Part shown: in pieces, positions 2,677-30,326 of the stretch
Position numbering within the stretch: the first letter of the stretch is position 1
Layout: each line of letters begins with the position of its first letter
NCBI GenBank assembly: GCA_035400625.1
Contig: DAOMZT010000004.1
Location: forward strand, 1 to 32,000
Source: an archaeon
GTDB lineage: Archaea; Iainarchaeota; Iainarchaeia; Iainarchaeales; CSSED10-239
Reading direction: 5' to 3'
Length of the DNA stretch: 32,000 bases
Notes under the pieces: model-generated
Database searches by the model: none
The model's input: only the letters and a program-made list of their open reading frames with translations
What the model was told of the DNA's origin: nothing
Made by a program: the position numbers and the translations under genes

Positions 2677-2883
2677 ATTAATCTATTATCACGAATTCAT
2701 ATAAATTGATATCGCAGTTATCTGCAATATCTTTCCTTCAATCTTTAAGAATCCGACAATATATTTAATATTAAAAAGCTATATAAAACCATATTACTTG
2801 TGTTTTTTTCTATTTAAATATATTTCTGTATATAATATATATGTATATATCATAACAAAATAATCTATTTTGTGTGGCTAATT

Positions 2884-3591
2884 ATGAAGATAAAAGAAAG
2901 AATAGTTGTTGAGCTTAAGAATATCTATAAAATATATAGCATGGGCTCTGCTTCTAGTGTTCATGCACTTGATGGGGTAGACTTAAAAATAAAACAAGGA
3001 GAATTAATAGCAATCATGGGTCCAAGTGGCTCTGGCAAATCAACAATGATGCATATTATCGGTGCTCTCGATCTGCCTAGCAAAGGAAAGCTATACCTTG
3101 ATGGAATAGATATTTCAAACCTAGAAGAAGATAAGCTTGCAGAAATTAGAGGTAAAAAAATTGGCTTTGTTTTTCAAAATTTTAATCTTATTCCAACTCT
3201 AACTGCCTTAGAAAATGTAATGCTACCTTTGTTATTTCAAGAAAGCGATACAACCATAAAAAACCAAGAAAAACGCTGTAAAGCACTTTTAGGTCTTGTT
3301 GGCCTTGGAGATAGAATAACACACAAACCAACAGAGTTATCTGGTGGACAACAACAAAGAGTAGCAATAGCTAGAGCACTTGTTAATGATCCAGAGATTA
3401 TTCTAGCAGATGAACCAACAGGAGCACTTGATTCAAAATCAAGCCTAGAAATCATGGATCTTTTAAAAGACCTAAACAAAAACGGAAAAACAGTAATATT
3501 AATAACACACGATAAAAACGTAGCAAACATTGCAAAAAGACAAATACATCTAAAAGATGGAAAAATAGAAGAAGACATAAAAACCAAATAG
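2884..3591 (+). CDS. ABC transporter ATP-binding protein, MacB/LolD/FtsE-type
   Basis: Walker A GPSGSGKST, signature LSGGQQQRVAIARAL and Walker B ILADEPTGALD are present. The ATG at 2884 is preferred over the GTG at 2872 listed in the track. Confidence 0.92.
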   Translation: MKIKERIVVELKNIYKIYSMGSASSVHALDGVDLKIKQGELIAIMGPSGSGKSTMMHIIGALDLPSKGKLYLDGIDISNLEEDKLAEIRGKKIGFVFQNFNLIPTLTALENVMLPLLFQESDTTIKNQEKRCKALLGLVGLGDRITHKPTELSGGQQQRVAIARALVNDPEIILADEPTGALDSKSSLEIMDLLKDLNKNGKTVILITHDKNVANIAKRQIHLKDGKIEEDIKTK

Positions 3592-3598
3592 ATAAAAA

Positions 3599-4795: not shown

Positions 4796-4827
4796 ATAAT
4801 TTTAAAAAACAAAAGGTGAGATTAAAA

Positions 4828-6096: not shown

Positions 6097-7307
6097 TTTC
6101 AGAAAAATATAAGTCATTGATTAATCTCACCATAAAGAGCATACAGAGAAAGAAGTTAAGATCAGCCTTAACTATTCTTTCTGTAATTATAGGTATTGCT
6201 TCTGTAGTAGCCTTAGTTATTTTAAGCGAAGGATTGATTTCTGCAGTTACTGAGCAATTTGATAAAATGGGCGCTAATTCTATAATGATATTGCCTACTA
6301 ACTTTGGAAGTAACCCACACACAACAGGAAGAGTATCAAAAGATTCTATGTTAAATATGAAAGATGCAGATAATCTTTCTAAACTTGCAGAAATAGAAGA
6401 CACCTTCCCTATAATGCTTTTTACTGCTAGAGGAGAATATAAAAACGAAGAACAGTTTGTTTATGTTTCGACTATTCCTTCTGATCGTCTAGACTCTTTT
6501 ATAGATTATGTAGGTATTAAAATAAAAGAAGGCAAAAGCTTTGATGGAAAAGAAGGTCATTTTGCTGTTGTAGGTCCAAATTTTACAAAAACATATAAAA
6601 GAGAAATAAAGGTTGGAGACACAATAAAACTAAATGGTGTAAGTTTTAAAATATGTGGAATATTAGATGCAATTGGAATGGAAGAATATGATGCCACCAT
6701 TTATATTGATAGAAAAGCAGGTCTTGAAGTTAACAACTATGGGGAAACTGTAAATTATATAATACTCAAATCAAAGATAGATGCAGATGCTAGATTAGTA
6801 GTTAAAAAAGCAGAAAAAGTACTTAGTAGGAATAGAAAAGAAGACACATTTATAGTTATTAGTGCAGAGTCTTTTTTAAATTTGATTAAAATAGTCCTTA
6901 ATATTATGAGATCTATTCTTATTGCAATTGCAGGAATCTCTTTAATTGTAGCATCCCTTGGTATTGCAAACTCAGTATTTACTTCTGTTCTAGAAAGGAC
7001 AAGAGAGATTGGCATATTAAAATCAATAGGTGCAAGAATAAATGATATTGTTTTTATATTTGTATTTGAATCTGTATTATTAACTGTTATTGGTGGAATA
7101 ATTGGTTTTTTTGTGGGTATAGGCATAGCAAAGATAATTATTATCTATGCAGCAAGTAAAAACTTTACAATGCTTGCTATTAACATAACCCCTTGGCTTG
7201 TAATCTCAATCTTATTATTATCTTTGGTTGTAGGTGTTATTTCTGGGTTATTCCCTGCTAGGGCTGCAGCAAAGATGAATGTTGTTGATGCTTTAAGGAA
7301 GCAATAA
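6093..7307 (+). CDS. ABC transporter permease, MacB/FtsX family (permease 2, diverged paralogue of permease 1)
   Basis: Same architecture as permease 1, with motif ERTREIGILKSIGARINDI. The ATGA start/stop overlap with the preceding gene at 6093-6096 suggests translational coupling. Confidence 0.88.
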   Translation: MISEKYKSLINLTIKSIQRKKLRSALTILSVIIGIASVVALVILSEGLISAVTEQFDKMGANSIMILPTNFGSNPHTTGRVSKDSMLNMKDADNLSKLAEIEDTFPIMLFTARGEYKNEEQFVYVSTIPSDRLDSFIDYVGIKIKEGKSFDGKEGHFAVVGPNFTKTYKREIKVGDTIKLNGVSFKICGILDAIGMEEYDATIYIDRKAGLEVNNYGETVNYIILKSKIDADARLVVKKAEKVLSRNRKEDTFIVISAESFLNLIKIVLNIMRSILIAIAGISLIVASLGIANSVFTSVLERTREIGILKSIGARINDIVFIFVFESVLLTVIGGIIGFFVGIGIAKIIIIYAASKNFTMLAINITPWLVISILLLSLVVGVISGLFPARAAAKMNVVDALRKQ

Positions 7308-8842: not shown

Positions 8843-8910
8843 AACTTGTCTTCTCCATAAATTATATACTTAAAACCATTTTATAAACATTACTTAGTCT
8901 AATTATTATT

Positions 8911-9654
8911 ATGTTGTCTGTTATTTTGTATAGTCTAATAAGCATACTTATAATCAGCACAATTTCTATTATTGGAATAACTGTTTTTTTTACAAATGAA
9001 AAGAAATTACCAAATATTCTCTTATTTTTAATCAGCTTTTCTGCAGGGGCTTTACTCGGAGATGCTTTTATTCATCTTTTGCCTGAGGCCATGGATTCAG
9101 GAATTAACCATGTGCCAATAGCTGTAATTTCAGGAATATTAGCGTTCTTTGTTTTAGAGAAATTTGTACAATGGAGACATTGTCATCAGCCAACATCTAA
9201 AGAACATCCTCACCCATTAGCAACCATGAATCTTGTAGGGGATGCATTCCATAATTTTCTTGATGGAGTGATAATAGCCACTAGCTATGTTGTTAGTATT
9301 CCTCTTGGTATCGCAACAACCGTTGCTGTTCTTTTACATGAGATCCCACAAGAGATTGGAGATTTTGGAGTTTTAGTTTATGCTGGTTACTCTAAAAAGA
9401 AAGCATTGCTAATGAACTTTATTATTTCTCTTACTGCTCTTCTAGGGGGAATTGTGGGATTATTATTAAGCAAAAGCATAACTTCTTTTTCTGGGATAAT
9501 GATTGCTTTTACAGCAGGTGGCTTTATTTATATAGCGACAGCTGACCTAATACCTGAGATGAAGAAAGAGACAAATTTTAAAAAAACAAGCATTCAACTT
9601 ATTGGTTTGTTGCTTGGTATTGGGGTTATGCTGTTGATGATATTATTGGAGTAA
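8911..9654 (+). CDS. zupT: ZIP family divalent-metal transporter (ZupT-like)
   Basis: ZIP signature LLHEIPQEIGDFGVL, HNFLDG and a polytopic membrane profile. Confidence 0.88.
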   Translation: MLSVILYSLISILIISTISIIGITVFFTNEKKLPNILLFLISFSAGALLGDAFIHLLPEAMDSGINHVPIAVISGILAFFVLEKFVQWRHCHQPTSKEHPHPLATMNLVGDAFHNFLDGVIIATSYVVSIPLGIATTVAVLLHEIPQEIGDFGVLVYAGYSKKKALLMNFIISLTALLGGIVGLLLSKSITSFSGIMIAFTAGGFIYIATADLIPEMKKETNFKKTSIQLIGLLLGIGVMLLMILLE

Positions 9655-9658
9655 AAAT

Positions 9659-11089
9659 ATGGAAAACAAAGTGAATAAAATTAAAGAACACTTAAAAAAT
9701 AATTTCTACAAATATTGGGCAGCAGGTATTTTTTTATTATTAATAATTATTGGTGCATTGTTAATATTTAAAAGCCCTACTTTGTTTTGGGATGAAGGGG
9801 TATATATAAATAATGCAAAATACATCTACTCTCTCGGAGAACAATCAACATATGAAAGTATTAGACCTCCACTTTTTCCAATAATTATTGGCTTATCTAT
9901 ACCTCTAGGCATAGATATTTTAATATTTTCAAAGATTTTTATATTTTTGTGCTTTTTACTAGGAATCTTGGCCATTTATTTAATATCTGAAAAAATACAA
10001 AAAAGCTCAGGCGTATTTTCTGCAATATCATTATTTACCTGCTCTTTAATTGTGTTTGTTTTACCACACATACTTACTGATTTTATTGTTTTAACATTTA
10101 TGCTTATTGCTTTTTATTTTTATATAAATAAAAAATATTTTCTATCTGGGTTATTTTGTGGGGTGTCTGTACTTTTAAGATTTCCTTCTGGTTTATTATT
10201 CATAATATTAGGACTGTTTTTATTTGAAAAAGACATAAAAAAAGCAATAAAAAACATATTGATCTTTGCTTCTGGATTTTTAATTCTTATAGTGCCTTAT
10301 CTTATTAGTAATAAAATCTTTTTTGGGTCTTTTCTAAAACCAATAATTAATGCACAATTGATAGTTGCACAAGGAGGATCTAATTTCTTAGGCACTGCTT
10401 GGTTTTTTATAAAGGTTCTAATAAGTCAAAATCTTATTTTGATTTTTATAATCTTGTTTATTATCCTTGTATTATCTAAAAAAATGAAAGATAAAAATCA
10501 TTACTTATTGTTAACTTTAGTTGTTGCATATTTTATATATTTTGCTCAACTACCACACTATGAAGACAGATATATCTTATTACTTATTCCTTTTGGAGCA
10601 ATAATTACCGGAATTGTAATATCTTATTTCTTGAATAAAATTTCTAATATAAAATTAAAACATTTTGTCGGTATAGCAACATTGATCTTTTTGCTAATTT
10701 TTGTGATATTTATTCTTTTAATTAGCAAAAATATATATAATATTAGCAATGGAAAAACAGAAATAAAGTTTCTTAAAGAAATTGGAGAAATAAATACAGA
10801 AAGGCTGTTTATCTACGACCCGATTACAGGAATATATTTTAATAAAAAACTAAATTGTATTGTAAATCCATACTATACAAATAAATTTATAGAGCGCTAT
10901 CCTGATGTAAATTATATGGTGCTTTCAGAGAAGCTATTTGATTGTAATAATGTAGTTTGTATGGACTGTGATGGTGCTGATCAATGCTTAGAAGAAGAAA
11001 AACTTAAAGAAACACTAAATAGGGAATGGGAAATTATAAAATCAGAAAAGCTATATGGTTTTAATTATTATATTTATTCTAAAAAATAG
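9659..11089 (+). CDS. Polytopic GT-C-type glycosyltransferase (ArnT/PMT-like) with a Cys-rich C-terminal soluble domain
   Basis: More than 10 predicted TMs. A DE motif in the first external loop (LFWDEGVYINNAKY) is typical of the ArnT/PMT_2 family. The C-terminal part reads ...FDCNNVVCMDCDGADQC.... GGAG lies upstream of the ATG. Confidence 0.6.
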   Translation: MENKVNKIKEHLKNNFYKYWAAGIFLLLIIIGALLIFKSPTLFWDEGVYINNAKYIYSLGEQSTYESIRPPLFPIIIGLSIPLGIDILIFSKIFIFLCFLLGILAIYLISEKIQKSSGVFSAISLFTCSLIVFVLPHILTDFIVLTFMLIAFYFYINKKYFLSGLFCGVSVLLRFPSGLLFIILGLFLFEKDIKKAIKNILIFASGFLILIVPYLISNKIFFGSFLKPIINAQLIVAQGGSNFLGTAWFFIKVLISQNLILIFIILFIILVLSKKMKDKNHYLLLTLVVAYFIYFAQLPHYEDRYILLLIPFGAIITGIVISYFLNKISNIKLKHFVGIATLIFLLIFVIFILLISKNIYNISNGKTEIKFLKEIGEINTERLFIYDPITGIYFNKKLNCIVNPYYTNKFIERYPDVNYMVLSEKLFDCNNVVCMDCDGADQCLEEEKLKETLNREWEIIKSEKLYGFNYYIYSKK

Positions 11090-11131: not shown

Positions 11132-12439
11132 ATGAAAACAATAAAAGATAGGTTATTTGTGTTATTTTTGTTATCTATTGCGATATTTATCTTTATTTTA
11201 TTAATTAGTAGTTATTCTATTTTTGTTTTAATAATTGGAATGCTTGCACTTTATTTTGCAATATTGTTTTTACTTGTTTTTTTTATGTATCCTAAAACAT
11301 CAAAAAGACAAAATATTCCGAAAGTATATCCAAATGTAGCAGTAGTAACTTATGCATTCAATAATTGGAAACCAATTGAAGAAACTATAAAAAATCTTTT
11401 AAAACTAAAATATCCTAAACCACTTGATATTTATGTAATTACAGATGGTTCTTGTGATTTCCTTAAAAAATATCCAATAAAAATCATCACTATACCAAAA
11501 AAATACTTTAAAAACAGACTAAATGTAAAAGCAACAATAATGAATATCGGACTTAAAAAAATAAACACAGATTATTTCTTTTGTGTAGATGGTGACACCA
11601 TCCCAAAACCAGATGCTCTAATGAAAATGATTCCTTTCTTAGAAGAAAAAGGAGTTGTTGTGGTAAATGGTTTTTTAGTCCCATCTAATAATGATAATCT
11701 AATATCAAAAATTCAAACTATAGAGTATAACTTTAGCTGGGGACTATTTCAAAGAATCATGGGAGCAATGGATTCTATTTCTGTTGCTGTTGGAGGAATG
11801 TGCTTAATACAAAAAAAAGCATTTCATGAAGTTGGTGGATATGATGAAAATAATGTTACAGAAGATAGAGAGTTAGTTTATAGACTAAGAGAAAAAGGAT
11901 ATAAATTTAGGTTCTCTGAAGAATCTAGGGGCTACACAGAAGTTCCAACCACACACAAACAGTTGATAAAACAAAGATTAAGATGGTATTATGGAGAGAT
12001 AGATACTGCTACAAAACATAGAAAATTCTATCTAAATAAAAAATATAATATGTATGGATTATTTATTTTGCCATATACTTTATTTATGCAAATTATATCT
12101 ATTGCTATATTATTTAGATTAGTTCATTTTATTTATAAAAAATATGTTGTTTTTTACTACCATCTTTTAGTTCAGATGATTAAACAATCATATTTTACAA
12201 AACTACCATTTATATTTCCAAATTATTTACCTTCAACAACGTTCTTTTGGCTGATTATTTTTGTAATATCTATGTTTTTGATATATGTGGGTTTTACACA
12301 TAGTAAATTTAATTTAAAACCAAAATATTATTTTGCATTTTTTATATATCTGTTTTTTTATAATCTTTATTTAGGAGTTATATATTTAATTGCAATGATA
12401 CAAAATATTATAGGTGATTTTAAATGGGAAAAGAGCTAA
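11132..12439 (+). CDS. Membrane-integrated family-2 glycosyltransferase with processive-synthase motifs (NodC/HAS/CesA/PgaC-like)
   Basis: Two N-terminal TMs and about four C-terminal TMs flank a GT2 domain with the D,D,D,QxxRW set: YVITDGS, CVDGDT, NVTEDRE and QRLRW (nt 11972-11986). Confidence 0.82.
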   Translation: MKTIKDRLFVLFLLSIAIFIFILLISSYSIFVLIIGMLALYFAILFLLVFFMYPKTSKRQNIPKVYPNVAVVTYAFNNWKPIEETIKNLLKLKYPKPLDIYVITDGSCDFLKKYPIKIITIPKKYFKNRLNVKATIMNIGLKKINTDYFFCVDGDTIPKPDALMKMIPFLEEKGVVVVNGFLVPSNNDNLISKIQTIEYNFSWGLFQRIMGAMDSISVAVGGMCLIQKKAFHEVGGYDENNVTEDRELVYRLREKGYKFRFSEESRGYTEVPTTHKQLIKQRLRWYYGEIDTATKHRKFYLNKKYNMYGLFILPYTLFMQIISIAILFRLVHFIYKKYVVFYYHLLVQMIKQSYFTKLPFIFPNYLPSTTFFWLIIFVISMFLIYVGFTHSKFNLKPKYYFAFFIYLFFYNLYLGVIYLIAMIQNIIGDFKWEKS

Positions 12440-13107
12440 ACGAAAAATTTAATAAAAATATATTTATTGCAGCAATATTAATTGTTCTGATCGTATTTAT
12501 TGTTGGATTTTTCACCATCACAATATATGATAATAAAAAAAGAACAGGGCTTATGGATGAATTTAATATACTTAACCAACAGACTGGATTAGATGAAATA
12601 TATGAAATCTATTTAAAAGAAAATCCAGAGAAGAAATGTGAAATATTAAAAAGCCAACTAAATTCTATGTTAAATACAAATAATAAATTATATATTAAAC
12701 TTAAACAATATAATGAAAATGCAATAGTAAGCACAGACAATGTAATAAAATACCAATTTGTGATAACAAACATTAAATTATGGTTACAATACAATAAATT
12801 AAAGGATGAATGTGATTCAAACATCAATGTTATGCTTTATTTCTATCCAGAAATCTTTGAAGACACACCAAAAAAATCAGAATTAGACGCAAAAACAATA
12901 ATCTTTGAAAACAAATTAAGAAGCATAATGACAAATTGCGACTATTTGTCTATTGCTTTACCAGATAAAAGTGATATAGAAATTATAAACCTTATAAAAC
13001 AGGAATATTCTATTATTGATTCGCCATCAGCTTTAATAAATGGCAAAGTTTATTATAATTTAGATTTAACAACTGACTTTTATGAAGAAATAAACTGTAA
13101 GGAATAA
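12424..13107 (+). CDS. Hypothetical N-terminally membrane-anchored protein
   Basis: Single TM IFIAAILIVLIVFIVGFFTITIY, then a ~190-aa domain with 4 Cys. It overlaps the upstream GT2 gene by 16 nt and ends 2 nt before the next GT2. I recognise no family. Confidence 0.55.
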   Translation: MGKELNEKFNKNIFIAAILIVLIVFIVGFFTITIYDNKKRTGLMDEFNILNQQTGLDEIYEIYLKENPEKKCEILKSQLNSMLNTNNKLYIKLKQYNENAIVSTDNVIKYQFVITNIKLWLQYNKLKDECDSNINVMLYFYPEIFEDTPKKSELDAKTIIFENKLRSIMTNCDYLSIALPDKSDIEIINLIKQEYSIIDSPSALINGKVYYNLDLTTDFYEEINCKE

Positions 13108-13109
13108 AT

Positions 13110-13850
13110 ATGAAAATACTAATAACAATACCATGCTATAACGAAGGAAGAAAACTAGAAAAAAACATAACTAAACTTAATAACTTTCTTTCTAAAAACC
13201 TTAAAGAACCATACTTGATTGATATTGCAGACAATAACTCCAAAGACAACACTAAAGATATTGCAAAAAAACTAGAGAAGAAATATCCTACAGTAAAATA
13301 TACTTTTGTCAAAGAACAAGGAAAAGGATTAGCTATCAAGTATTCTTGGAATAATACCGGCAAAGACTATGATGTCTTGTCCTTTATGGATGCTGATCTT
13401 GCAACAGGAATAGATGCTTTCCCTGGAATGATAAAAAAGATAACTAAAGATAACTATGATTTAGTCTACGGGAGTAGATATCATCCTAAATCTAACACCA
13501 AAAGGACCATTGGAAGATATATAATAAGCAAGGGCTATCTTTTTCTACAAAAGATAATACTAGGTACTTCTTTTACAGATACACAATGTGGCTTTAAAGC
13601 CATAAAGAAAAAAGCATATTTCCAGATAAAAGACCTTTTCTTGAAGAAAAGACTTTCTGGAGACAAGAACAATATGTTCTTTGATACTGAGCTTCTGGTT
13701 TTAGCAAAATACAAGGGACAAAAGATTATTGATTATCCTGTTACTTGGAAAGAACAAAAAGAAACAAGCGTTAAGATCTTTAAGTACTCTATTCTTTTCT
13801 TAAGATATCTTTTCTATTTTAGAAAAGAAATAAAAAGAAAAAAAAACTAA
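13110..13850 (+). CDS. Family-2 glycosyltransferase, dolichyl/polyprenyl-phosphate sugar synthase-like (Dpm1/GtrB/AglK-like)
   Basis: The N-terminal ITIPCYNEG, the DxD-like FMDADL and the downstream TDTQCGFKA are typical of Dpm1/GtrB-type GT2 enzymes. Confidence 0.82.
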   Translation: MKILITIPCYNEGRKLEKNITKLNNFLSKNLKEPYLIDIADNNSKDNTKDIAKKLEKKYPTVKYTFVKEQGKGLAIKYSWNNTGKDYDVLSFMDADLATGIDAFPGMIKKITKDNYDLVYGSRYHPKSNTKRTIGRYIISKGYLFLQKIILGTSFTDTQCGFKAIKKKAYFQIKDLFLKKRLSGDKNNMFFDTELLVLAKYKGQKIIDYPVTWKEQKETSVKIFKYSILFLRYLFYFRKEIKRKKN

Positions 13851-20440: not shown

Positions 20441-20469
20441 AATTAACCATTTTTGATTTGTATTAATTT

Positions 20470-20712
20470 TTAAAATCTATATTCTTCAAAAAATAATTTT
20501 ATTAAATATATTACAGCAAATGCAAATATTAATTTTAAAACAAATGCCCATAATGTTAATATGGTAAAAGAGTTCATCACAGAAATAAAACCAATGATTG
20601 CAATTACTAGAATCGCATAGATAAATATTGTTGAAAAGGTGTGTGTTTTAAAGTAACGACAAGTAAATATTTCTGTATACCAAGAAAGTGGTTTTGATTC
20701 GCTTAATTGCAT
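20470..20712 (-). CDS. Small hypothetical membrane protein (2 predicted TMs)
   Basis: An ORF with two hydrophobic helices (IFIYAILVIAIIGFI and LTLWAFVLKLIFAFAVIYLI). No recognisable family. Confidence 0.4.
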   Translation of the reverse strand: MQLSESKPLSWYTEIFTCRYFKTHTFSTIFIYAILVIAIIGFISVMNSFTILTLWAFVLKLIFAFAVIYLIKLFFEEYRF

Positions 20713-20750
20713 ATATAATATAAGTTAGATTATATATAAAAATAGGTTGT

Positions 20751-21083: not shown

Positions 21084-21204
21084 TTGTCTTTTCCTTGTTT
21101 TATATTTATAAGATAATAAATATAAAATCATTTATATTAAAAAACTTACTATTTTAAGTAAAATTAAGTTTTTTAGGTACAAAAATAAAAATAAGAAAGG
21201 ATTC

Positions 21205-21348
21205 TTATCTGAATCCTTTAAATCTATAGTCTTTAACTTTTGGAGGTTCGTTATTACACTTTAAGCAAAGCTCTTCTCCACTATCTTCATCTATTCTGTG
21301 TCTTGTTACATTTTTACAAAAAGAACACATCTTTGTTTCATATTTCAT
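21205..21348 (-). CDS. 47-aa zinc-ribbon micro-protein (CxxC...CxxC)
   Basis: Below the track threshold; hand translation gives MKYETKMCSFCKNVTRHRIDEDSGEELCLKCNNEPPKVKDYRFKGFR*. GTGAT lies 5 nt upstream of the ATG. The stop sits in the hairpin GGATTC-ttatct-GAATCC. Confidence 0.5.
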   Translation of the reverse strand: MKYETKMCSFCKNVTRHRIDEDSGEELCLKCNNEPPKVKDYRFKGFR

Positions 21349-21576
21349 GTTTTATCACGATTTATTCATTCAATTAATAAATTTCAAATTTTGATATTTG
21401 AAATATATTAGTTTATATATATTCTATGAAAAGAAAGATTTAAAATCACACTTTTTTGAAAATTCAGGGTGTTTGATTTAAAAAAACAAGTCTGATAAGA
21501 AGAGCTTAATAAAAATAAAAAGAATAAGAAAAAAATAAAAAAACAAATCAAAAAAATAAATCCATTAGTTTAAGAT

Positions 21577-21678
21577 TTATTTCTTCTTCTTTGTTGTTTT
21601 CTTTTTAGTTGTTGTTTTCTTTGCTGTTTTCTTTACTGTTGTTTTCTTTGCTACTGCTTTCTTTTTCTTTACTGCCAT
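21577..21678 (-). CDS. 33-aa lysine/threonine-rich highly basic micro-protein (histone-H1-tail-like composition)
   Basis: Hand translation gives MAVKKKKAVAKKTTVKKTAKKTTTKKKTTKKKK*. A strong GGGGTGA lies 7 nt upstream of the ATG and an AT-rich TATA-like box lies ~45-55 nt upstream. Caveat: this is a low-complexity purine-rich tract in an AT-rich genome. Confidence 0.35.
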   Translation of the reverse strand: MAVKKKKAVAKKTTVKKTAKKTTTKKKTTKKKK

Positions 21679-21906
21679 TTTTCTTTCACCCCTTTTTAAC
21701 TTTTCCTTCCCCTTACGGAAAAAATATTATATATTAATTATGATACAACAGATATATAAAGGTTTTTGTTCTCTCACACATGAATTGTTTTTCATGTTTT
21801 CCGGCAGACAAATGAAAAAAACAACATGTTTGCGAACGCAGGAAAATACTGATGTTGGCGAGCCACTCAAAAACACATGAAAATACCTACATATCTACTT
21901 TACTTG

Positions 21907-21965
21907 AGAAAAAGAAAAGAAAAAAAGAAAAAAAACGTTTCTTAACGAAATAAAAGAAAAAATAA
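21907..21965 (-). terminator. Oligo-T-rich terminator region downstream of ndk
   Basis: The minus strand reads tttttcttttatttcgttaagaaacgttttttttctttttttcttttctttttct immediately after the ndk stop. Multiple T5-T8 runs are typical archaeal termination signals, and there is a small CGTT/AACG hairpin. Confidence 0.4.
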
Positions 21966-21976
21966 TTTTTTAAAAA

Positions 21977-23714: not shown

Positions 23715-24482
23715 CTACTTTTTCTTTGCAGGAGTAGCACCCTTACCTGCTGGAGCAGCACCCTTACCTGCTGGAGCAGCACCCTTACCTGCTGGAGTAG
23801 CACCCTTACCTGCTGGAGCAGCACCCTTGCCTGCTGGAGCTGCACCCTTGCCTGCTGGAGCAACAACTGCTTCTGCTTCTTTAGCAGCAGCTTCTGCTTC
23901 TTTAGCTTTTGCTCTTCTTTTTCTTACAGTTCCAACTGACTTTAAGTTGCTCTTGTTCTTTTCAACAATAACTTTCATTTTACATGGAAACTTAGAATCC
24001 ATTCTCTCAAATAATTCTTTAACCATTTTTACATTTGCTTCATCAACAAGAACACTATAGATCTTCTGACCTTTTCTTACTCTTGATGCCCTTCCAACAA
24101 CCTTACCAAAAGGACATTGACTCATTCCTGTTTGAATTCTATCAGCGTGTGCACCTTGTGCTTGTTTATTTTCTCTTAAGAAAAATTGAGGATAAACTCT
24201 TACTTTCATATAATAGTTTGTAGCAGTTAATTTCTTGTTTAGTTGTCTTACAACACTTTGTCTTACTGCTTCAATAGCATTATCCCTAATCTGTACTTTA
24301 TCCATAGTTACATAGTGTACAACATGAGTATATTCTCTAGTTCCTGTACCCATATGGAACTGTCTAATCCTCATTCCAGGTACACCACCAACAAAATTCT
24401 TTTTATGAACCTTTACTGCCACTCTTGTGTATGCTCTTTTGTTTACTTTTGGACAATAACAATGTCCTGGTCTTAATCCCAT
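23715..24482 (-). CDS. rpl10e: Ribosomal protein L10e (uL16) with a ~75-aa repetitive Ala/Pro/Gly/Lys C-terminal extension
   Basis: MGLRPGHCYCPKVNKRAYTRV...RIRQFHMG...QGAHADRIQTGM... is diagnostic of L10e. GGTGA lies upstream of the ATG. The tail is KEAEAAAKEAEAVV(APAGKGA)n...PAKKK. Confidence 0.93.
   Translation of the reverse strand: MGLRPGHCYCPKVNKRAYTRVAVKVHKKNFVGGVPGMRIRQFHMGTGTREYTHVVHYVTMDKVQIRDNAIEAVRQSVVRQLNKKLTATNYYMKVRVYPQFFLRENKQAQGAHADRIQTGMSQCPFGKVVGRASRVRKGQKIYSVLVDEANVKMVKELFERMDSKFPCKMKVIVEKNKSNLKSVGTVRKRRAKAKEAEAAAKEAEAVVAPAGKGAAPAGKGAAPAGKGATPAGKGAAPAGKGAAPAGKGATPAKKK
23727..23861 (-). repeat. Six full units plus one partial unit of a 21-nt tandem repeat, in frame in the 3' end of rpl10e
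   Basis: Unit agcacccttacctgctggagc at 23736, 23757, 23778, 23799, 23820 and 23841, with only 1-2 substitutions per unit. It encodes xPAGKGA heptads. An adjacent 18-nt duplication (gcttctgcttctttagca, ~23868-23903) encodes KEAEAA. Confidence 0.9.
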
Positions 24483-24699
24483 TTTATTTCACCTTTATTA
24501 AAAAAATAGATAAAATTGTCGAAATTTATCTTTGCTATATATAAATATATTTATATAGAAACATATTTAAATAAAACATTTTAATAAATTTTAAAAAACT
24601 AGAATCTAGAAAGGAAAAAGAGAGCCTTAAAAAAAGACCCCCTTTCTCTTTATCATTTCTTTTGGGGAAAGAAAAGTTTTTGGGGTAAAATACCTCAAA

Positions 24700-24736
24700 A
24701 ATATAATATAAGAAAGAAAAGAACAGGGACCTGTTC
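24700..24736 (-). terminator. Hairpin plus T-tract (intrinsic-terminator-like) oriented for minus-strand transcription
   Basis: A perfect 7+2+7 palindrome GAACAGG-GA-CCTGTTC at 24721-24736 is followed on the minus strand by ttttctttctt. It lies ~220 nt downstream of the DUF192 stop, inside a 470-nt gap with no convincing ORF. Confidence 0.35.
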
Positions 24737-24953
24737 TGGTAAACAGTATGTTTCTCTTCTTCCTCTTTTCTGCCTTGTATTTTATTCTTTGTGGAATTTG
24801 GTAATAGATTAACTGTATATCTTATAGCCCTAAAATCTTTATATATACTACCGGGTAGTTTTTCCAAACCTAAACAAGAAAAAGGGTTTGATTTGTGAAA
24901 TATACATAATAATTGATTTATTTTTTTGAGGTTTTTGGCTATTTTTTGTAAAT

Positions 24954-25304
24954 TTACCAATTTAGCCTATCCCCTATAGAATAAAATTTTTTACCATATT
25001 TTATAGGGAGTTCTATAATATAACGACATTTTTTCATAGGTCTAGTCATCTGCCAAGGTTTAAGCCCAAATTTGAGATCTATAATCTTCTTATTAGAATC
25101 CAAAAACAAGACATTTATTGGAAAAAACACAAAAAACATGTGTATGCTTGCACCAACTTTTGTCTCTCTTTCAAGATCAAAAATCAGACCATAATCAAAA
25201 TTCTTCTCTTTAGAAAACATCAGACCTTTAGCTCTACTAAATATATTATCTGCAATTTTATGAGATGCAATAATATTCTTTTTCTGTGAGATGTTTTTAA
25301 TCAT
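24954..25304 (-). CDS. DUF192 (COG1430) family protein
   Basis: Matches the family pattern RAKGLMFSKE...GLIFDL....SIHMFFVFFPINVLFLDSNKKIIDL...YIIELP...GD. Confidence 0.7.
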   Translation of the reverse strand: MIKNISQKKNIIASHKIADNIFSRAKGLMFSKEKNFDYGLIFDLERETKVGASIHMFFVFFPINVLFLDSNKKIIDLKFGLKPWQMTRPMKKCRYIIELPIKYGKKFYSIGDRLNW

Positions 25305-25375
25305 ATTAAATCCTTACATTTTAATTATAACCTCAAAATTAATAACATTATTTAATTTCCCGTTTTTTACTAATC

Positions 25376-27877
25376 TTAAATATTTAATTTTCTTAATAAT
25401 TGTTTTTTATTATTATAATAATCATTAACTATATTATTAAAATCCACACACTCATTTATTTCAGAATCAACTAACCACCAAAGTAATTTCTTGCGATTAA
25501 AAAACTCAGAAGTATTTATGGCTGATATTTCCAAATTGATTTTAAATTCAGAGTCTTCCTTTGAATAGAAGATTACATCATTGTCCTTTCCATTGCTTAT
25601 CTCTAATATCTTGGTAATTTGCAATTGTTCAATATTATTTACTTTTGTTCTTTCTAGATTTATTACAATTACTTTTCTATTAATTGCTTTTGCCTTTTCT
25701 GAATACTTTGGTAGCAAATCCTCTGTTAAACAAATCATTGAAAATTCATACCATTTAGTATCAAATAAATTTTCTGAAAAATTATCTAATATCAAATAAT
25801 CTGGTTTTTGAGAAATCATTTGAGAAATTATAGTTCTTTTATTAGAATCAATATTATCTAATAATAATCTCTTAACCCAGTTCTTATGTGGCAATTTAAT
25901 ATTGTCAAACGATTGTATGCTTGTAATTTTTTTATCAGGATAAAAATGAGCCAATGCCGAAATAAATAAATTTGCATCATCTCCAATTATTAATACTTGA
26001 TAATCCTCATCCATTGCTGTCCAAATATAAGAATAAATATCAATTATACCCACACCTAAATTTATTAGATTTACAGGTGTTAATGGTTCTTCCAAATTCT
26101 TTTTAATAACAAATGAAGACCTTTTATTGCTTTTGTCTCCTACAGAATATAACCCTTCAATTTTATAGCCATTTGGTAAATAGCCATTTATTGGTTGATC
26201 AGAACTTACTTTCAAACCCATTATTTTTGTTAAAGAAAGAATAAATTGATTTAATTTAAATAAATTATCAAATTTAAGATTTGTTTCCATTGCCCCATAT
26301 TTAAGATGATATACTATTATCGGCATATTTTCGCCAGAACAACTTACTTCTATAATATTCTTATCTTCTAAAATTATAGACAAAAAACCAAAACCTAAAA
26401 AATCCCTTTTAATAAAATTAAAATATAATTTTTTTTCTAAATCTGTTAAATCATAAGTTAATTTATCAATAGCTAAATCAAATGTTTTCTTAAGGTAATT
26501 ATTTAGATTTTGTTTATCTCCTTTATTTGAGATATAATTTGCATCAATAGAATTCAAAAAAATCTTTTTTATTTCAACATATATTTCTTCTTGAGAGTGA
26601 TTAAGCTCTGGTTGAATTACACTATATACTAGACCTTGAGACATCATATAATTTATATTAACAATAGTGAATTCGTCAATATTATATTTATCAGAGATAT
26701 TTATTTTATCAGTTTCAGATATTTGTGGTTTAACACTATAAACTTTAGTTATATTACTTGATTGCTGAACAACAGATGGTTTTTCTATAGTTTCTTTTGT
26801 AATTCTAGAAATTGCAGTTTTAGATAATGTTTTATCTCCTGAATCTTTTGGCAACATATAATCATAGGTTGTTTTGGGTAAGGCAATTGTTTGATTTGGT
26901 TTCTCTTCAATATGCGTTTTTATTTCATCACTATCAAAAACAATATCTGGAATAACAATTTCTTCAACATAATTGTCTAAATTTAGTCTTGATTTTTCTG
27001 ATTTTGCTTTCTTATGTTCTTTTTTATAATTATTAATATTATTTTCGACATTTTTGTTTGTATTGATTTTGCCATTATCTAAAACAAATGTAGGTTCCAT
27101 TATTTTTTTTCTAGGTGGTGTTTGTTCATATGTTGAATATCCTTTATTTACTACATCTGCAATATTTGTATCATCCCTAATAGAAAATATCTCAGGAACT
27201 TCAATTTCTTCAATTAATGCATAAATCTGATTAGCATTTTCTTTCTCTTCCTTATTTTGTTGTTTCCCAGAAAAGTGGGGTTCTGCTTTTTTAATCTTTT
27301 GCTGTTTTTTAACTTTTGCTTCAATGGCATCTAGCTTTGCATAAAGATTAGAAACTGCTGGCTTTTTTATTTGAATCTTTTCTATTTTTGGCTCATCGCC
27401 TAAAAAACTAATTGATTCAATAAATGGTTGTTCATCTTCTACTTTGTCTGTTTTTTCCTCAAGCGTAGCCAATAAAAAATTAATCTCGGGTGTGTCTTTT
27501 TCTACAATATTTTCTAAATCTGTTGCTGTCACTCTATCAGCAATATCTTGTAATCTGTTAGATATTACCTCCAGTCTTTTCTTTTCGATTTCCAATCTTA
27601 ATGCATTTTCAATATATTCTTTTGGAGTGATTGTTTCAATTGTGGGATAATTAGATTCTAAAATATCATTCGACTTTTCGTCTATATTACTTGATTTTTC
27701 TTCTTTTTTCTTAGATATGTTATGTAATTTTAATTTTGGGAGGGTTTTTACTTTGCTCTGATAGATATCAGGGGGTGTATTATCAATGGAAACATTAAAT
27801 TTCTTTGTAAGAGTCTTTTCTATTTTTTTTGGATTGGAATTATCATTAATCCTAGATAACTTTTTTAGTTCTACCAT
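25376..27877 (-). CDS. FlaI/ArlI/PilB-family (type IV filament/secretion ATPase) homologue lacking Walker A, Asp-box, Walker B and His-box residues, with a ~400-aa charged N-terminal extension
   Basis: Residues ~405-833 are colinear with archaeal FlaI: LVYSVIQPELNHSQEEIY, FIKRDFLGFGFLSIILEDKNIIEVSCSGENMPIIVYHLKYG, SSFVIKKNLEEPLTPVNLI, KLPHKNWV and KPDYLIL. The P-loop position reads IIGDDANLFISAL (nt 25955-25987). There is no GK[ST] anywhere in the protein. Confidence 0.8.
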   Translation of the reverse strand: MVELKKLSRINDNSNPKKIEKTLTKKFNVSIDNTPPDIYQSKVKTLPKLKLHNISKKKEEKSSNIDEKSNDILESNYPTIETITPKEYIENALRLEIEKKRLEVISNRLQDIADRVTATDLENIVEKDTPEINFLLATLEEKTDKVEDEQPFIESISFLGDEPKIEKIQIKKPAVSNLYAKLDAIEAKVKKQQKIKKAEPHFSGKQQNKEEKENANQIYALIEEIEVPEIFSIRDDTNIADVVNKGYSTYEQTPPRKKIMEPTFVLDNGKINTNKNVENNINNYKKEHKKAKSEKSRLNLDNYVEEIVIPDIVFDSDEIKTHIEEKPNQTIALPKTTYDYMLPKDSGDKTLSKTAISRITKETIEKPSVVQQSSNITKVYSVKPQISETDKINISDKYNIDEFTIVNINYMMSQGLVYSVIQPELNHSQEEIYVEIKKIFLNSIDANYISNKGDKQNLNNYLKKTFDLAIDKLTYDLTDLEKKLYFNFIKRDFLGFGFLSIILEDKNIIEVSCSGENMPIIVYHLKYGAMETNLKFDNLFKLNQFILSLTKIMGLKVSSDQPINGYLPNGYKIEGLYSVGDKSNKRSSFVIKKNLEEPLTPVNLINLGVGIIDIYSYIWTAMDEDYQVLIIGDDANLFISALAHFYPDKKITSIQSFDNIKLPHKNWVKRLLLDNIDSNKRTIISQMISQKPDYLILDNFSENLFDTKWYEFSMICLTEDLLPKYSEKAKAINRKVIVINLERTKVNNIEQLQITKILEISNGKDNDVIFYSKEDSEFKINLEISAINTSEFFNRKKLLWWLVDSEINECVDFNNIVNDYYNNKKQLLRKLNI

Positions 27878-27953
27878 ACCGATAACTGCACAAATATATT
27901 TATAGCAAATAATAAGTGCATTATATTTATAAATATATTTTAAGGCTTAAATT

Positions 27954-28688
27954 TTAAATAAAAGAAACAGCCAAATTACCTAAAAAAGAAAGCACATTAA
28001 AATAAGTAAGCGCTGCAATAACAACATAGGAAATTATTAGTATCAACACAAAAGGAACTAATGGGGAAACCCACACTTTTTCTATTTTATATTGTGTAGA
28101 CAACTTTTTTAATTCATATATTTGCTGTTCTGGAGAGCAATTTGGTCTTATTGTTATTTTAGAAACTACTTTATTATCTACTAATTTATATTCTTCTAAA
28201 GGGGTATAAAAATTAGTCAAACTATCCACATCTTTTGGAAAGCCAAAACTCATTAAGATTAAGCTTTCTCCTAATGGCTTATTTGGATAATTCCCTTTAA
28301 TTATATTGTAAATTAAAAATAAAACTGGGAAAAATAATGTTAGAACAGTAGACAATAAAAATACAAACGCAGTAAATAAAACAGAAATACCACTAACAAA
28401 ACTCATAGCCATTAAAGCAATAAGATCTCCTTCTCCAATATATGCATAAACCGTTATTTTTCCCAATACATAGATAATGGTTAAAAAAGCAAAAGAAATT
28501 GCAATCTGTAAGATGTACAGATATAAAAAGCCCTTAGCTATACCAAAAAAAACATTATATACAAAACCAATTACAGATATGATTAATAAAGGTACAATAT
28601 TTATTTCTCTGGTTTTTATATCTTGATATCCTAAAAAAATTAAACATATTAAACCTAAAAAAAACATGGGTAAAAATACAAGGTTCAT
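27954..28688 (-). CDS. Archaeal type IV prepilin/prearchaellin peptidase (A24 family, GxGD aspartyl protease; PibD/FlaK/EppA-like)
   Basis: Polytopic membrane protein carrying both catalytic-Asp contexts, LGYQDIKTREI and YIGEGDLIALMA, plus a soluble insert between the late TMs. Confidence 0.82.
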   Translation of the reverse strand: MNLVFLPMFFLGLICLIFLGYQDIKTREINIVPLLIISVIGFVYNVFFGIAKGFLYLYILQIAISFAFLTIIYVLGKITVYAYIGEGDLIALMAMSFVSGISVLFTAFVFLLSTVLTLFFPVLFLIYNIIKGNYPNKPLGESLILMSFGFPKDVDSLTNFYTPLEEYKLVDNKVVSKITIRPNCSPEQQIYELKKLSTQYKIEKVWVSPLVPFVLILIISYVVIAALTYFNVLSFLGNLAVSFI

Positions 28689-28690
28689 AT

Positions 28691-29692
28691 TTATCTCTTC
28701 TCTTCTTTTTCTTTAATATTTATTTTTTCTTCTTTTTCTTTAACTGGTTTCTTCTCTTTTGTTTTCTTCTGTTTTTTTGGTTCAATTGCAGTTTTAGTCA
28801 AATGCATTAAATCATTATATGCTTTTCTTTTTGTTATTCTTGCTGTTGATCTTTCAAATAATTGATCAGTATATTTTCCAGGCGGACCAAAAGAAATAAT
28901 TTGCTTTTTTAAAATCTTATTTAGTATTGCTTGATTTTGTAAAGTTGTATTGGTTTCATCAATTATTGATTTTGGCAAATCTATAGTCAAAACACCACTG
29001 CCTATTCTATCAACATAATCTGTACCTGAACCTGCAGTAACAAATTTTGCCATCTGCGCTAGCTTAATTGTTGCTGAAAATTTATAAACTAAATCATAAC
29101 TTTTCTGATCAATCTTTTGATTTAATTTATCTGCCATTTTTGAAATGCCTGCAACATTAAAGGCTCTGTGTTTTTGGATATACCATAAAAGATCCCTTAA
29201 TGTTTTTACAAAAAAAGAATCATACATATAATAAGTAATATAGCCCATCATTCCATTATAGCCCTCTACACCTACATTTTTTTCCTTTATAAATTTTTCT
29301 AGTCTTGATAACCCTAAAAGATAACTTGCTGAATTATTAATTAATCCAAATGGATGAGCTATCACGAAAAGATAATCCTTTCTCTCACACATGTCATAGA
29401 TTCTTCGCATTGAAACACTTTCTTCAAAGAAAACATTATAGCTATAAATATCTTCATTAGGTGCATAAACTAATACTTCTCCCAGATCTGTAGAAATGGT
29501 CATTCCAGGAATCAGAACATTTGCTTTTGGCTTTTCTTTTAACAAATCGAAATATGCTTTTTTTGGGTTTTTCTTTGCATTTTCTGTTATTGCTGTTCCA
29601 AGAAGATTATTTTTATTAACAAACTGCCAGTATCTTCTACTTGACTGTTTTCTTTTTAGAAATTGAGTGTTTAAATCTAAGTTACATATCAT
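28691..29692 (-). CDS. PHP-domain-like protein with most metal-ligand histidines substituted; Lys/Glu-rich C-terminal tail
   Basis: The PHP motif order is preserved but degenerate: DLNTQF (for DLHxHT), GTAITEN (for AITDH), IPGMTISTDLGEVLVY (for PGxEIS...H), VIAHPFG (retained), VEGYNG, and TAGSGTDYVDRIG (for GSDAH..G). The tail is KKQKKTKEKKPVKEKEEKINIKEKEEKR. This is a hand alignment of moderate certainty. Confidence 0.5.
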   Translation of the reverse strand: MICNLDLNTQFLKRKQSSRRYWQFVNKNNLLGTAITENAKKNPKKAYFDLLKEKPKANVLIPGMTISTDLGEVLVYAPNEDIYSYNVFFEESVSMRRIYDMCERKDYLFVIAHPFGLINNSASYLLGLSRLEKFIKEKNVGVEGYNGMMGYITYYMYDSFFVKTLRDLLWYIQKHRAFNVAGISKMADKLNQKIDQKSYDLVYKFSATIKLAQMAKFVTAGSGTDYVDRIGSGVLTIDLPKSIIDETNTTLQNQAILNKILKKQIISFGPPGKYTDQLFERSTARITKRKAYNDLMHLTKTAIEPKKQKKTKEKKPVKEKEEKINIKEKEEKR

Positions 29693-29702
29693 ATTTTATC
29701 TA

Positions 29703-30326
29703 TTATTTTAAATTTACTCTCGCATCTACTATATAAATCTCTTTTTCTGTTAAAATTACCGGGTTTAAATCTAGCTCTTGAAGATGTTTGTCTTTTGCCA
29801 ACTCGCATACCTTTTCTAGTAGCAAGATAAGCTTAGAGACAGGATAGTTCTTTCCTCTTGCAGAAAAAAACTTACTTACTTTTGTTGCATAAACCATTTC
29901 TTCTATTTCTTTTTTTGTTATTGGTAAAATCCTGATTGCTGTATCATCTAAAAGCTCTGTGTAGATGCCACCTTGACCAAAAACAATGACTTTGCCAAAC
30001 TGAGCATCATTGTTTATTCCAATAAGTAGCTCAAGACCCTTAACTTGCTTTTGAATAATTACTTTGCCTTTAACATTTTCTTTCTTTAGAACATTTTGAA
30101 GATTTTCAAAGGCATCTTTAAGTGCTTTTTTTGTATAAATGTCTGTATAAACTGCTTTACTTTCTGTCTTATGCACAAGAGATGAGCTAAGCTTAAGAAC
30201 ATACGGGAAATCAGAGAATTTATCTATATCTTTTTTGGAGATTGCTTTTGACTCCAAATATGAGATTTTATTACTCTTAATATACTTTAAAGAATCTTCT
30301 AAGTTTAACCAAGCCATTTTTTTCAC
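29703..30326 (-). CDS. Stand-alone ATP-grasp domain protein related to the beta subunit/domain of ADP-forming acetyl-CoA synthetase (ATP-grasp_5)
   Basis: FPYVLKLSS..VHKTESKAVYTDI, GLELLIGINNDAQFGKVIVFGQGGIYTELLDDTAIRILPI and ELDLNPVI match the ACD-beta pattern. No CoA-binding or ligase-CoA partner gene is adjacent. Confidence 0.72.
   Translation of the reverse strand: MKKMAWLNLEDSLKYIKSNKISYLESKAISKKDIDKFSDFPYVLKLSSSLVHKTESKAVYTDIYTKKALKDAFENLQNVLKKENVKGKVIIQKQVKGLELLIGINNDAQFGKVIVFGQGGIYTELLDDTAIRILPITKKEIEEMVYATKVSKFFSARGKNYPVSKLILLLEKVCELAKDKHLQELDLNPVILTEKEIYIVDARVNLK

Follow-up and report, generated by a model that had tools for sequence, protein, structure and literature searches.

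Why should an archaeal gene cluster keep a prepilin peptidase and a protein resembling a pilus assembly ATPase where there is neither a membrane platform to build on nor a pilin to process? The question is raised by the first 32,000 nucleotides (nt) of contig DAOMZT010000004.1 (assembly GCA_035400625.1), from an archaeon of the Iainarchaeota, and this whole 32 kb stretch is referred to here as the window. Five adjacent minus-strand genes in it encode, in order of transcription, an ATP-grasp protein, a PHP-like protein, a class III signal (prepilin) peptidase, a paralogue of the FlaI/GspE ATPases without a P-loop (hereafter the pseudo-ATPase) and a DUF192 protein. To our knowledge, type IV filament machines are thought to be always driven by a P-loop hexameric ATPase sitting on a platform protein. 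Our reading, which is drawn from sequence comparison and to which we give a probability of about 60%, is that the cluster arose by deletion from a type IV pilus-like operon, conserved in Iainarchaeota/Diapherotrites and built around a non-catalytic FlaI paralogue.

The five open reading frames (ORFs) lie at 24954-30326 and are separated by 10, 2, 76 and 71 nt, in agreement with the co-directional arrangement and spacing given in a preliminary description of the locus. The families it had named were recovered through profile or PDB matches for the ATP-grasp protein, the peptidase, the pseudo-ATPase and DUF192, whereas the PHP-like assignment is supported at the level of the predicted fold and not at that of sequence. 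It had also taken the peptidase as intact and the ATPase homologue as catalytically dead, which is in accordance with the two catalytic aspartates kept in the former and the Walker A and B motifs lost in the latter. An archaeal type IV pilus locus was defined operationally as an ATPase plus a T2SSF platform plus class III pilins, a peptidase being optional. The window locus lacks a catalytically competent assembly ATPase and, as previously remarked, platform and pilin genes; neither a T2SSF gene nor a class III signal-peptide gene was found anywhere in the 32 kb. The scan for class III signal peptides picked up only transmembrane segments lying inside three proteins (a ZIP transporter, a glycosyltransferase and a MacB permease), which were rejected as pilins.

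The operon in relatives and the platform genes of the window

Genomic contexts were obtained from look-ups of the encoding contigs and from a scan of 185,579 species genomes, which yielded 15 loci; altogether, more than 20 related contigs (designated by L numbers) were available, most of them with an annotation as Iainarchaeota/Diapherotrites. The 15 loci of the genome scan were all from archaeal metagenome-assembled genomes (MAGs); six of these bear that annotation, among them the complete genome of Ca. Forterrea multitransposorum. A recurring order was found in which a divergent beta-CASP gene is followed by an optional ATP-grasp gene and by those of the PHP-like protein, the A24 peptidase, the pseudo-ATPase, T2SSF_a, T2SSF_b and DUF192 and, further on, by L10e, a methyltransferase and NDK. 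The two T2SSF genes (280 aa for T2SSF_a and about 375 aa for T2SSF_b, both matching Pfam T2SSF) stand between the pseudo-ATPase and DUF192 in every relative with enough contig. In addition, class III pilins come directly after DUF192 in seven loci of deeper branches (L004, L010, L012, L014, L016, L017, and L019), with signal peptides of the form KK[SA]IS[AP][IV]I preceding a hydrophobic helix. Accidental juxtaposition, which the preliminary description had proposed to check through the conservation of the neighbourhood, is thus not indicated across the related contigs, and the type IV filament context that it had suspected is supported by the platform genes and class III pilins found in the same operon.

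Some of the pilins after DUF192 are modular, joining a class III signal peptide and a pilin N-domain to a concanavalin/laminin-G lectin-like domain (L019, 17521-18756) or to NHL repeats (L004, 3978-5558). Their architecture is consistent with adhesive tip or minor pilins.

The most divergent arrangements help to rank the components. L031, whose pseudo-ATPase (P0023) has 30% identity, keeps the peptidase, the pseudo-ATPase and two consecutive T2SSF genes in entirely different flanks, without PHP-like or DUF192 genes. The flanks are also rearranged in L011, in which the stretch from the peptidase through DUF192 is retained, and an adjacent PHP-like gene is absent in both L011 and L016. We rank the peptidase, the pseudo-ATPase and the two platform genes as the functional core, followed by DUF192 (tightly attached), the PHP-like gene (mostly attached) and the ATP-grasp gene (dispensable).

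The nearest platform-bearing relative, L005, is colinear with the window from beta-CASP to NDK, with 84-86% nt identity in blastn. Window positions 31900-25344 correspond to L005 4787-11340, and window positions 25380-21947 to L005 13251-16653; L005 positions ~11341-13250, about 1.9 kb containing both platform genes, are missing from the window. The absence of the platform in the window is therefore due to a lineage-specific deletion, which extends from the start codon of T2SSF_a to near the stop codon of T2SSF_b and is in-phase and non-polar. The 71-nt scar consists of the intergenic region between the pseudo-ATPase and T2SSF_a, the T2SSF_a start codon and the last ~8 codons of T2SSF_b with its downstream spacer, and it contains a relic mini-ORF of seven codons (ATG..TAA, 25325-25348, MLLILRL*). 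The join lies at a TGTT(A) microhomology of 4-6 nt, with no repeat liable to mislead an assembler. The same junction is present in L020/L021 (JGI Ga0116145_1000002 and NCBI DAOTOS010000002.1), independently assembled 287-kb contigs which are ~98% identical to the window and whose scar differs from that of the window at 3 of 71 positions. Since the junction is common to independent assemblies of diverged strains, the deletion is real, occurred as a single event and is older than the split of the strains.

A second strain-level gene indel was observed within the same cluster. L020/L021 carry at 8904-9998 an extra gene for a 364-aa DHH/DHHA1 phosphoesterase between the ATP-grasp and PHP-like genes (window 29693-29702), which is absent from the window, L001 and L005-L009. 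A 28-nt direct repeat flanking this indel in L020/L021 was considered and rejected, since on closer view it amounts to no more than AT-rich similarity near the start codon and the ribosome-binding site.

The fate of the retained genes after the deletion was followed by comparing the window with L020, both of which bear the scar (synonymous divergence, dS, 0.06-0.11). The ratio of non-synonymous to synonymous divergence (dN/dS) was 0.16 for the pseudo-ATPase (26.5 synonymous and 18.5 non-synonymous differences), 0.07 for the peptidase, 0.07 for the PHP-like protein and 0.15 for DUF192, and it ranged from 0 to 0.08 in the flanking housekeeping genes. The four genes are full-length in both strains, with no stops and no frameshifts. 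The peptidase, the pseudo-ATPase, the PHP-like protein and DUF192 have been under purifying selection since the deletion, as shown by these small counts. Values of dN/dS of 0.15-0.26 for the pseudo-ATPase, 0.05-0.10 for the PHP-like protein, 0.10-0.15 for DUF192 and 0.07-0.11 for the ATP-grasp protein were also recorded. A relative-rate test gave 41 window-specific against 11 L005-specific changes in the pseudo-ATPase; beta-CASP (22/5) and L10e (10/1) show the same asymmetry, and an acceleration specific to the pseudo-ATPase after the deletion was therefore rejected.

The pseudo-ATPase and the accompanying proteins

The pseudo-ATPase matches Archaeoglobus fulgidus GspE (PDB 2oap) by sequence with an E value of 6.6e-37 and also aligns to Sulfolobus acidocaldarius FlaI. 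In the alignment to 2oap, the P-loop GETASGKTT is replaced by GDDAN---LF, with deletion of three residues (S-G-K), the Asp box IEDTRE by IQSFDN and the Walker B motif PDYIIVGE by PDYLILDN. The sequence alignment to 2oap and FlaI stops at the Walker B position, and the Asp box, Walker B and His box of the family were not found. The NCBIfam FlaI profile gave 107.7 bits, for a cut-off of 550, and no match to Pfam T2SSE was obtained. The AlphaFold2 (AF2) model of residues 400-833 had a confidence score (pLDDT) of 72 overall and of 80-94 in the C-domain, and Foldseek matched it to 2oap (1.9e-26), FlaI (3e-23) and CpaF (1e-17). As the match to 2oap spans 453 columns, the whole two-domain fold, with a PAS-like N-terminal and a RecA-like C-terminal domain, is kept. 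Judging from its motifs, the protein would be unable to bind or hydrolyse ATP.

The loss of the P-loop is a property of the family. A HMMER search of 1.84 billion representatives returned ~22 full-length family representatives at E <= 1e-112, the next matches being at ~1e-43. Walker A is absent in all ~24 members (P0001-P0023 and P0025), including the six close homologues with 45-79% identity (6/6), and present in 125 of 128 remoter homologues. In a neighbour-joining tree, 17 pseudo-ATPases formed a single clade with respect to 51 canonical ATPases and are therefore monophyletic. The N-domain motifs D.NI.E..C.G, VYH..YG..TN, LP.G and GSSF.I.K are conserved in the family, and the EEI.VPEI motif, of which the N-terminal extension of the window protein has two copies, was found again in 12 of 17 members. 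No description of a P-loop-less FlaI/GspE/PilB paralogue was found in the searchable literature.

The N-terminal extension is highly variable in length, the proteins ranging from 757 to 1116 aa, and the ORF is split in two in two metagenome contigs (L001, 2897-5375, and L003, 985-3967). It must be noted that local assembly errors, with blocks omitted by de novo assemblers, have been reported for the Forterrea genome in a 'secretion-related ATPase' with internal repeats (PMC5905446). MAG gene models in this N-terminal region should be treated with care; the warning does not apply to the deletion scar, since it concerns internal repeats and the junction is repeat-free.

The PHP-like protein gave no Pfam or PDB sequence match for any of 26 family members (Pfam on all of them, PDB by single-sequence and profile searches), and its match to NCBIfam CehA/McbA had an E value of 0.024. 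The AF2 model built on the 26 homologues reached a pLDDT of 78.6, and the top 15 Foldseek matches were all PHP proteins, led by the RNase AM PHP (7ug9), the Pol III alpha PHP and BAD_1165; the match is weak, with a best E value of 2.5e-4 (7ug9) and modest TM scores of 0.3-0.47. The window protein has AITEN in place of the D-H motif and AGSGTDY in place of GSDxH, and thus lacks the full set of metal ligands. AHP and VE are kept and D-H and GSDxH are gone throughout the family, while the N-terminal DLHTH is present in deep-branching members and reads DLNT[QHSK] in the clade of the window. The predicted fold and the partial motifs fit a degenerate PHP domain. The family was seen only in relatives of this locus, with its gene directly upstream of that of the peptidase, overlapping it or at most 10 nt away, in most of them, and no description of it was found in the searchable literature. 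The PHP domain of E. coli Pol III alpha has also lost its metal ligands and serves as a protein-binding domain, which is a precedent for a non-catalytic role of the PHP-like protein.

With respect to the peptidase, the Pfam profiles Arc_PepC_II (39.9 bits, cut-off 29.9) and Peptidase_A24 (26.9 bits, cut-off 26.5) and the NCBIfam profile FlaK_Arch (3e-12) all match, and the catalytic D23 and GEGD88 are both invariant in 14 orthologues, as in the A24 family.

The ATP-grasp protein is matched by ATP-grasp_5 with 136.4 bits (E 1.2e-39, cut-off 27.6), its top NCBIfam matches are ADP-forming acyl-CoA ligases, and residues 35-206 align to solved ACD beta chains (4xyl_B, 3e-22; PH1789 1wr2, 1.4e-23; 9y43, 1.8e-24). 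Translation probably starts at the ATG at 30317 (204 aa, like the orthologues) rather than at the GTG at 30326. Compared with Ca. Korarchaeum ACD1 (4XYL chain B) and Pyrococcus PH1789 (1WR2), it is a near full-length ATP-grasp_5 domain of 204-207 aa instead of 230-238 aa, which retains the histidine motif HKT, reads HKTESKAV in the loop where they have HKTDVGGV and lacks ~15 N-terminal residues. No ACD alpha subunit (CoA-binding/succinyl-CoA-ligase-like) was found in the 32 kb window. The ACD alpha and beta genes of Thermococcales are separate and non-adjacent, and a stand-alone beta gene is therefore normal. The ATP-grasp gene adjoins the cluster only in L001, L005-L010, L019 and L020/L021; it is missing from it in L011, L012, L014, L015, L017 and L031. 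The protein is an ACD beta subunit and belongs to energy metabolism; its gene is linked to the conserved pilus module through synteny alone and is dispensable to it, and the ATP-grasp-dependent modification entertained in the preliminary description is left without support, all the more so as the inserted DHH gene intervenes in L020/L021.

Membership of the 116-aa protein in DUF192/UPF0127/COG1430, a family without known function, is clear from Pfam (52.4 bits, cut-off 27) and from NCBIfam PRK03760 (1.6e-30, with a score of 105 for an equivalog cut-off of 146). In 14 related loci the gene comes immediately after T2SSF_b, at 4-70 nt, and ahead of the pilin genes where these are present. The DUF192 protein of Haloferax is a Sec-secreted glycoprotein (PMC8241124), whereas that of the window has no signal peptide. 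No report linking DUF192 to a type IV pilus operon was found in the searchable literature. The coordinates of the cluster and of its motifs are provided in Table 1.

Table 1. Genes, domains, and motifs of the cluster in the window.
Feature	Position	Strand	Basis
ATP-grasp_5, ACD beta-subunit homologue	29703..30326	minus	Pfam, NCBIfam, PDB
Putative PHP-fold protein, degenerate metal ligands, 333 aa	28691..29692	minus	AF2 + Foldseek + partial motifs
PHP-like motif I, DLNTQ in place of DLHTH	29663-29677	minus	
PHP-like retained motif AHPFG	29345-29359	minus	
PHP-like retained motif GVEGY	29258-29272	minus	
PHP-like conserved C-terminal peptide GPPGKYTD.LFERSTAR.TK.KAY.DL	28808-28888	minus	
FlaK/PibD-type class III signal (prepilin) peptidase, family A24	27954..28688	minus	Pfam, NCBIfam
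Peptidase, segment containing D23	28602-28628	minus	
Peptidase GEGD88	28425-28439	minus	
P-loop-less FlaI/GspE paralogue (pseudo-ATPase), 833 aa	25376..27877	minus	PDB 2oap, AF2/Foldseek
Low-complexity, length-variable N-terminal extension, ~aa 1-383	26729-27877	minus	
EEI.VPEI motif, two copies in the N-terminal extension	27188-27211 and 26942-26965	minus	
FlaI-like N-terminal domain + RecA-like C-terminal domain, ~aa 384-833	25379-26728	minus	
Walker A relic GDDANLF	25964-25984	minus	
Asp-box relic IQSFDN	25901-25918	minus	
Walker B relic PDYLILDNF	25778-25804	minus	
Deletion scar, 71 nt	25305..25375	minus	blastn vs L005
DUF192/UPF0127 (COG1430), 116 aa	24954..25304	minus	Pfam, NCBIfam

Proposed role of the cluster and competing explanations

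As the comparison of the loci shows, the ancestral operon comprised the genes of the PHP-like protein, the class III signal peptidase, the P-loop-less FlaI/GspE paralogue, two TadB/TadC-like T2SSF proteins, DUF192 and one or more pilins. In such a system the peptidase would mature the pilins, the two platform proteins would form the assembly site in the membrane and the pseudo-ATPase would dock there as a scaffold or adaptor without catalytic activity, with its N-terminal arm, which is long and disordered and carries the EEI.VPEI motifs, possibly recruiting partners. The energy would probably be supplied in trans by a canonical T2SSE ATPase with an Fe-S domain, encoded elsewhere with its own platform genes. 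One ancestral deletion of ~1.9 kb then took out both platform genes of the operon cleanly, preserving read-through to DUF192. As the four retained genes are intact and under purifying selection after the deletion, they would still work, most likely in conjunction with the second, canonical system or else with a platform that has been relocated.

Such a canonical system was encountered in the relatives. The gene after DUF192 in L011 encodes a 596-aa T2SSE ATPase in which Walker A is intact (GNTGSGKT) and which begins with a 4Fe-4S ferredoxin domain; next come the genes of two small membrane proteins, one of which matches T2SSF. The same Fe-S ATPase is encoded on the L019 contig, ~8 kb beyond NDK, and on the 839,632-bp contig that constitutes the complete Forterrea genome. 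Given its presence in L011, L019 and Forterrea, relatives with the pseudo-ATPase operon also possess an active ATPase with its own platform, on which the pseudo-ATPase may depend.

Fe-S T2SSE/FlaI-type ATPases with small T2SSF-like proteins were located in Iainarchaeota at L011 10080-13475, L025 8001-12714 and L022 10001-13303, and the family is widespread in the group, with dozens of clusters at 90% identity. The fusion of a ferredoxin domain to the ATPase suggests a redox control of pilus assembly.

Several observations weigh against the derivation of the cluster from a pilus operon that still functions. The canonical ATPase/platform locus was not located for the species of the window; a metagenome scan with T2SSF_a of L005, which used exact 8-mer patterns only, gave two loci, none of them from the L020 sample. 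Pilins or any other substrate of the peptidase were not found in the window or in the closest clade (L005-L009 and L020/L021). The roles of the pseudo-ATPase, the PHP-like protein and DUF192 are those which their sequences and positions would suggest. In addition, the substitutions between the window and L020 are few, and the codon changes of the pseudo-ATPase core (8 non-synonymous and 9 synonymous) are compatible with a modest relaxation after the deletion. Much of the neighbourhood conservation is found inside a single phylum, whose members also keep the wider beta-CASP-to-NDK synteny; for this reason, and because both are absent from L031, the links of the PHP-like and DUF192 genes are weaker than those within the four-gene core.

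This last point leads to the view that only the peptidase, the pseudo-ATPase and the platform are linked, the PHP-like and DUF192 genes being unrelated housekeeping genes held in place by the local synteny of a small, slowly rearranging genome. The conservation of the beta-CASP-to-NDK block in the same relatives, the core without either gene in L031, the lack of an adjacent PHP-like gene in L011 and L016 and the wide distribution of DUF192, which is secreted in Haloferax, would all accord with it. We nevertheless regard it as rather doubtful, given that DUF192 stays at 4-70 nt from T2SSF_b even in L011 and is placed between platform and pilins in seven loci, and that in most loci the PHP-like gene either overlaps that of the peptidase or is separated from it by no more than 10 nt. 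Somewhat less likely still is that the cluster is a decaying remnant, useless once the platform was lost, whose genes are heading to pseudogenes and look intact only for want of time since the deletion. Two of the four conserved core genes are indeed gone, no pilins are nearby, the PHP-like proteins of the clade of the window have lost further metal ligands (HTH to NTQ) and the codon changes of the pseudo-ATPase core allow for some relaxation. In contrast, two strains that diverged after the deletion keep the four ORFs full-length and undisrupted at dN/dS of 0.07-0.16, no gene-specific acceleration relative to the housekeeping neighbours was detected and the deletion spared the reading of the genes downstream.

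The preliminary description had instead tentatively suggested an accessory or regulatory module of a filament, which would here mean a dedicated five-gene module that never had its own platform or pilins and in which the ATP-grasp protein may modify a component. The tight spacing, the common direction and the ATP-grasp gene adjoining the PHP-like gene in L001 and L005-L009 speak for such a module; we consider it very improbable, however, as every relative carries platform genes and many have pilins as well, the 71-nt spacer is a deletion scar and the ATP-grasp protein is a typical ACD beta with HKT, whose gene is missing from the cluster in six loci. That the missing platform is an assembly artefact, the real genome having the full operon, is the least credible of all: the assembler-omitted blocks reported for Forterrea (PMC5905446) and the split pseudo-ATPase ORFs of L001 and L003 would lend themselves to this explanation, yet the window, the JGI metagenome contig and the 287 kb NCBI MAG contig share the junction, at least two strains were assembled independently (3/71 scar differences, ~2% overall) and the join offers nothing more than microhomology. 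The deletion derivative of a pilus-like operon thus remains our preferred reading. Going beyond it, we tentatively put forward that the P-loop-less FlaI paralogue may be a pseudoenzyme ring or adaptor coupling the separate Fe-S ATPase to the TadB/C-like platform. In that case, the species of the window would represent a natural knock-out of the platform, with selection still acting on the pseudo-ATPase, the peptidase, DUF192 and the PHP-like protein, and these would have a platform-independent role, e.g., in regulating or sharing the second system.

A whole DPANN clade conserves, under purifying selection, an operon in which the position of the motor is held by a P-loop-less paralogue, and these archaea probably rely on surface contacts with their hosts. 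Should the pseudo-ATPase work as a scaffold or regulator together with a second, Fe-S ATPase, this would represent a new architectural principle in pilus assembly, and DUF192 and the degenerate PHP protein, both of them orphan families, would acquire testable roles. As far as we could find, the type IV filament superfamily would thereby have its first described pseudo-ATPase and DUF192 its first functional context, and the platform-less species would provide a natural experiment on which parts are useful without their cognate platform.

Other features of the window and comparison with known systems

The window has a G+C content of ~30%, and its remaining genes are the housekeeping set of a small archaeal genome, including aminoacyl-tRNA synthetases, NDK, ribosomal protein L10e, a beta-CASP nuclease, a P-type ATPase, glycosyltransferases and a MacB-type ABC system. 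The interval between DUF192 and L10e (24607-24866, read on the minus strand) contains a block of ~200 nt whose conservation among the window, L005-L009, L020/L021, L029 and L030 far exceeds that of the coding DNA around it, and whose ~100-nt core is recognizable upstream of L10e in L012 and L014 also. It is preceded by a TATA-like box (ATATATAAAGATTTTAGG) and followed by a T-run, and RNAalifold predicted a 3' stem enclosing the hairpin AACAG-GUCC-CUGUU, five pairs showing compensatory changes. Rfam gave only chance-level matches to miRNA hairpins for this block, which probably represents a small RNA gene not described before; the 141-aa ORF with TTG start at 24535-24960, called as a gene by JGI in L020, is probably spurious. 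The adjacent L10e/uL16 gene (23715-24482, minus) ends in a 21-nt tandem repeat of 6.5 copies with 93% matches (23727-23862), so that the C-terminal tail of the protein is made of (A/T)PAGKGA heptads; the orthologues range from 218 to 259 aa in length.

The stretch between NDK and thioredoxin (21132-21976 and 20441-20750) is gene-free in appearance and has 71-82% nt identity in L005, L006 and L008. Small ORFs in it could encode a 47-aa Zn-ribbon (21205-21348, CxxC...CxxC), a 33-aa lysine-rich peptide (21577-21678) and an 80-aa membrane protein (20470-20712). At 2872-7307, the MacB-type ABC system consists of an ATPase and two MacB_PCD/FtsX permeases bracketing a 426-aa secreted, C-terminally anchored protein with Ig-like (NPCBM-associated/HYDIN-like) domains, and it may be an export module for a surface protein or adhesin.

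Among known systems, the operon of the relatives is closest in composition to the archaeal type IV pilus and Tad-like loci (Aap, Ups, Epd, and Haloferax Pil; PMC4858521), with which it shares a FlaK/PibD peptidase, a FlaI/GspE-fold protein, two TadB/TadC-like T2SSF proteins and class III pilins in one co-directional cluster. It differs from them in that the P-loop, the Asp box and Walker B are missing from its ATPase homologue throughout the family and that DUF192 and a degenerate PHP protein are built in; the window, moreover, has no platform and pilin genes. The text of the census by Makarova, Koonin and Albers (2016) makes no mention of inactivated ATPases, DUF192/COG1430, PHP or DPANN (PMC4858521), and no description of pili in Iainarchaeota was found in the searchable literature.

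At the level of the individual proteins, the predicted PHP fold and its motif order (N-terminal D.H.H strand, AHP, VE) are like those of the PHP phosphoesterases (RNase AM/YciV 7UG9 and BAD_1165 3O0F) and of the PHP domain of Pol III alpha (2HNH and 4GX8). The PHP-like family differs from the phosphoesterases in being without D-H and GSDxH, and in the clade of the window also without H.H, and it has a conserved C-terminal peptide of its own. The pseudo-ATPase finds its best sequence and fold matches in GspE (2OAP) and Sulfolobus FlaI (4II7/4IHQ), whose N-domain motifs it keeps; unlike them, it has lysines for two N-domain arginines, a diverged region after Walker B and an added disordered N-terminal extension of ~380 aa. 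The concept of a second motor-family or RecA-family subunit that does not itself power the machine and relies on a primary ATPase has counterparts in PilU, a PilT-dependent ATPase (PMC6762196), and in FlaH/ArlH, the ATP-binding partner of FlaI (PMC5019145). The likeness would be one of working and not of family, FlaH belonging to the KaiC-like family, and both of these proteins bind nucleotide through a Walker A motif, whereas the pseudo-ATPase family has none.

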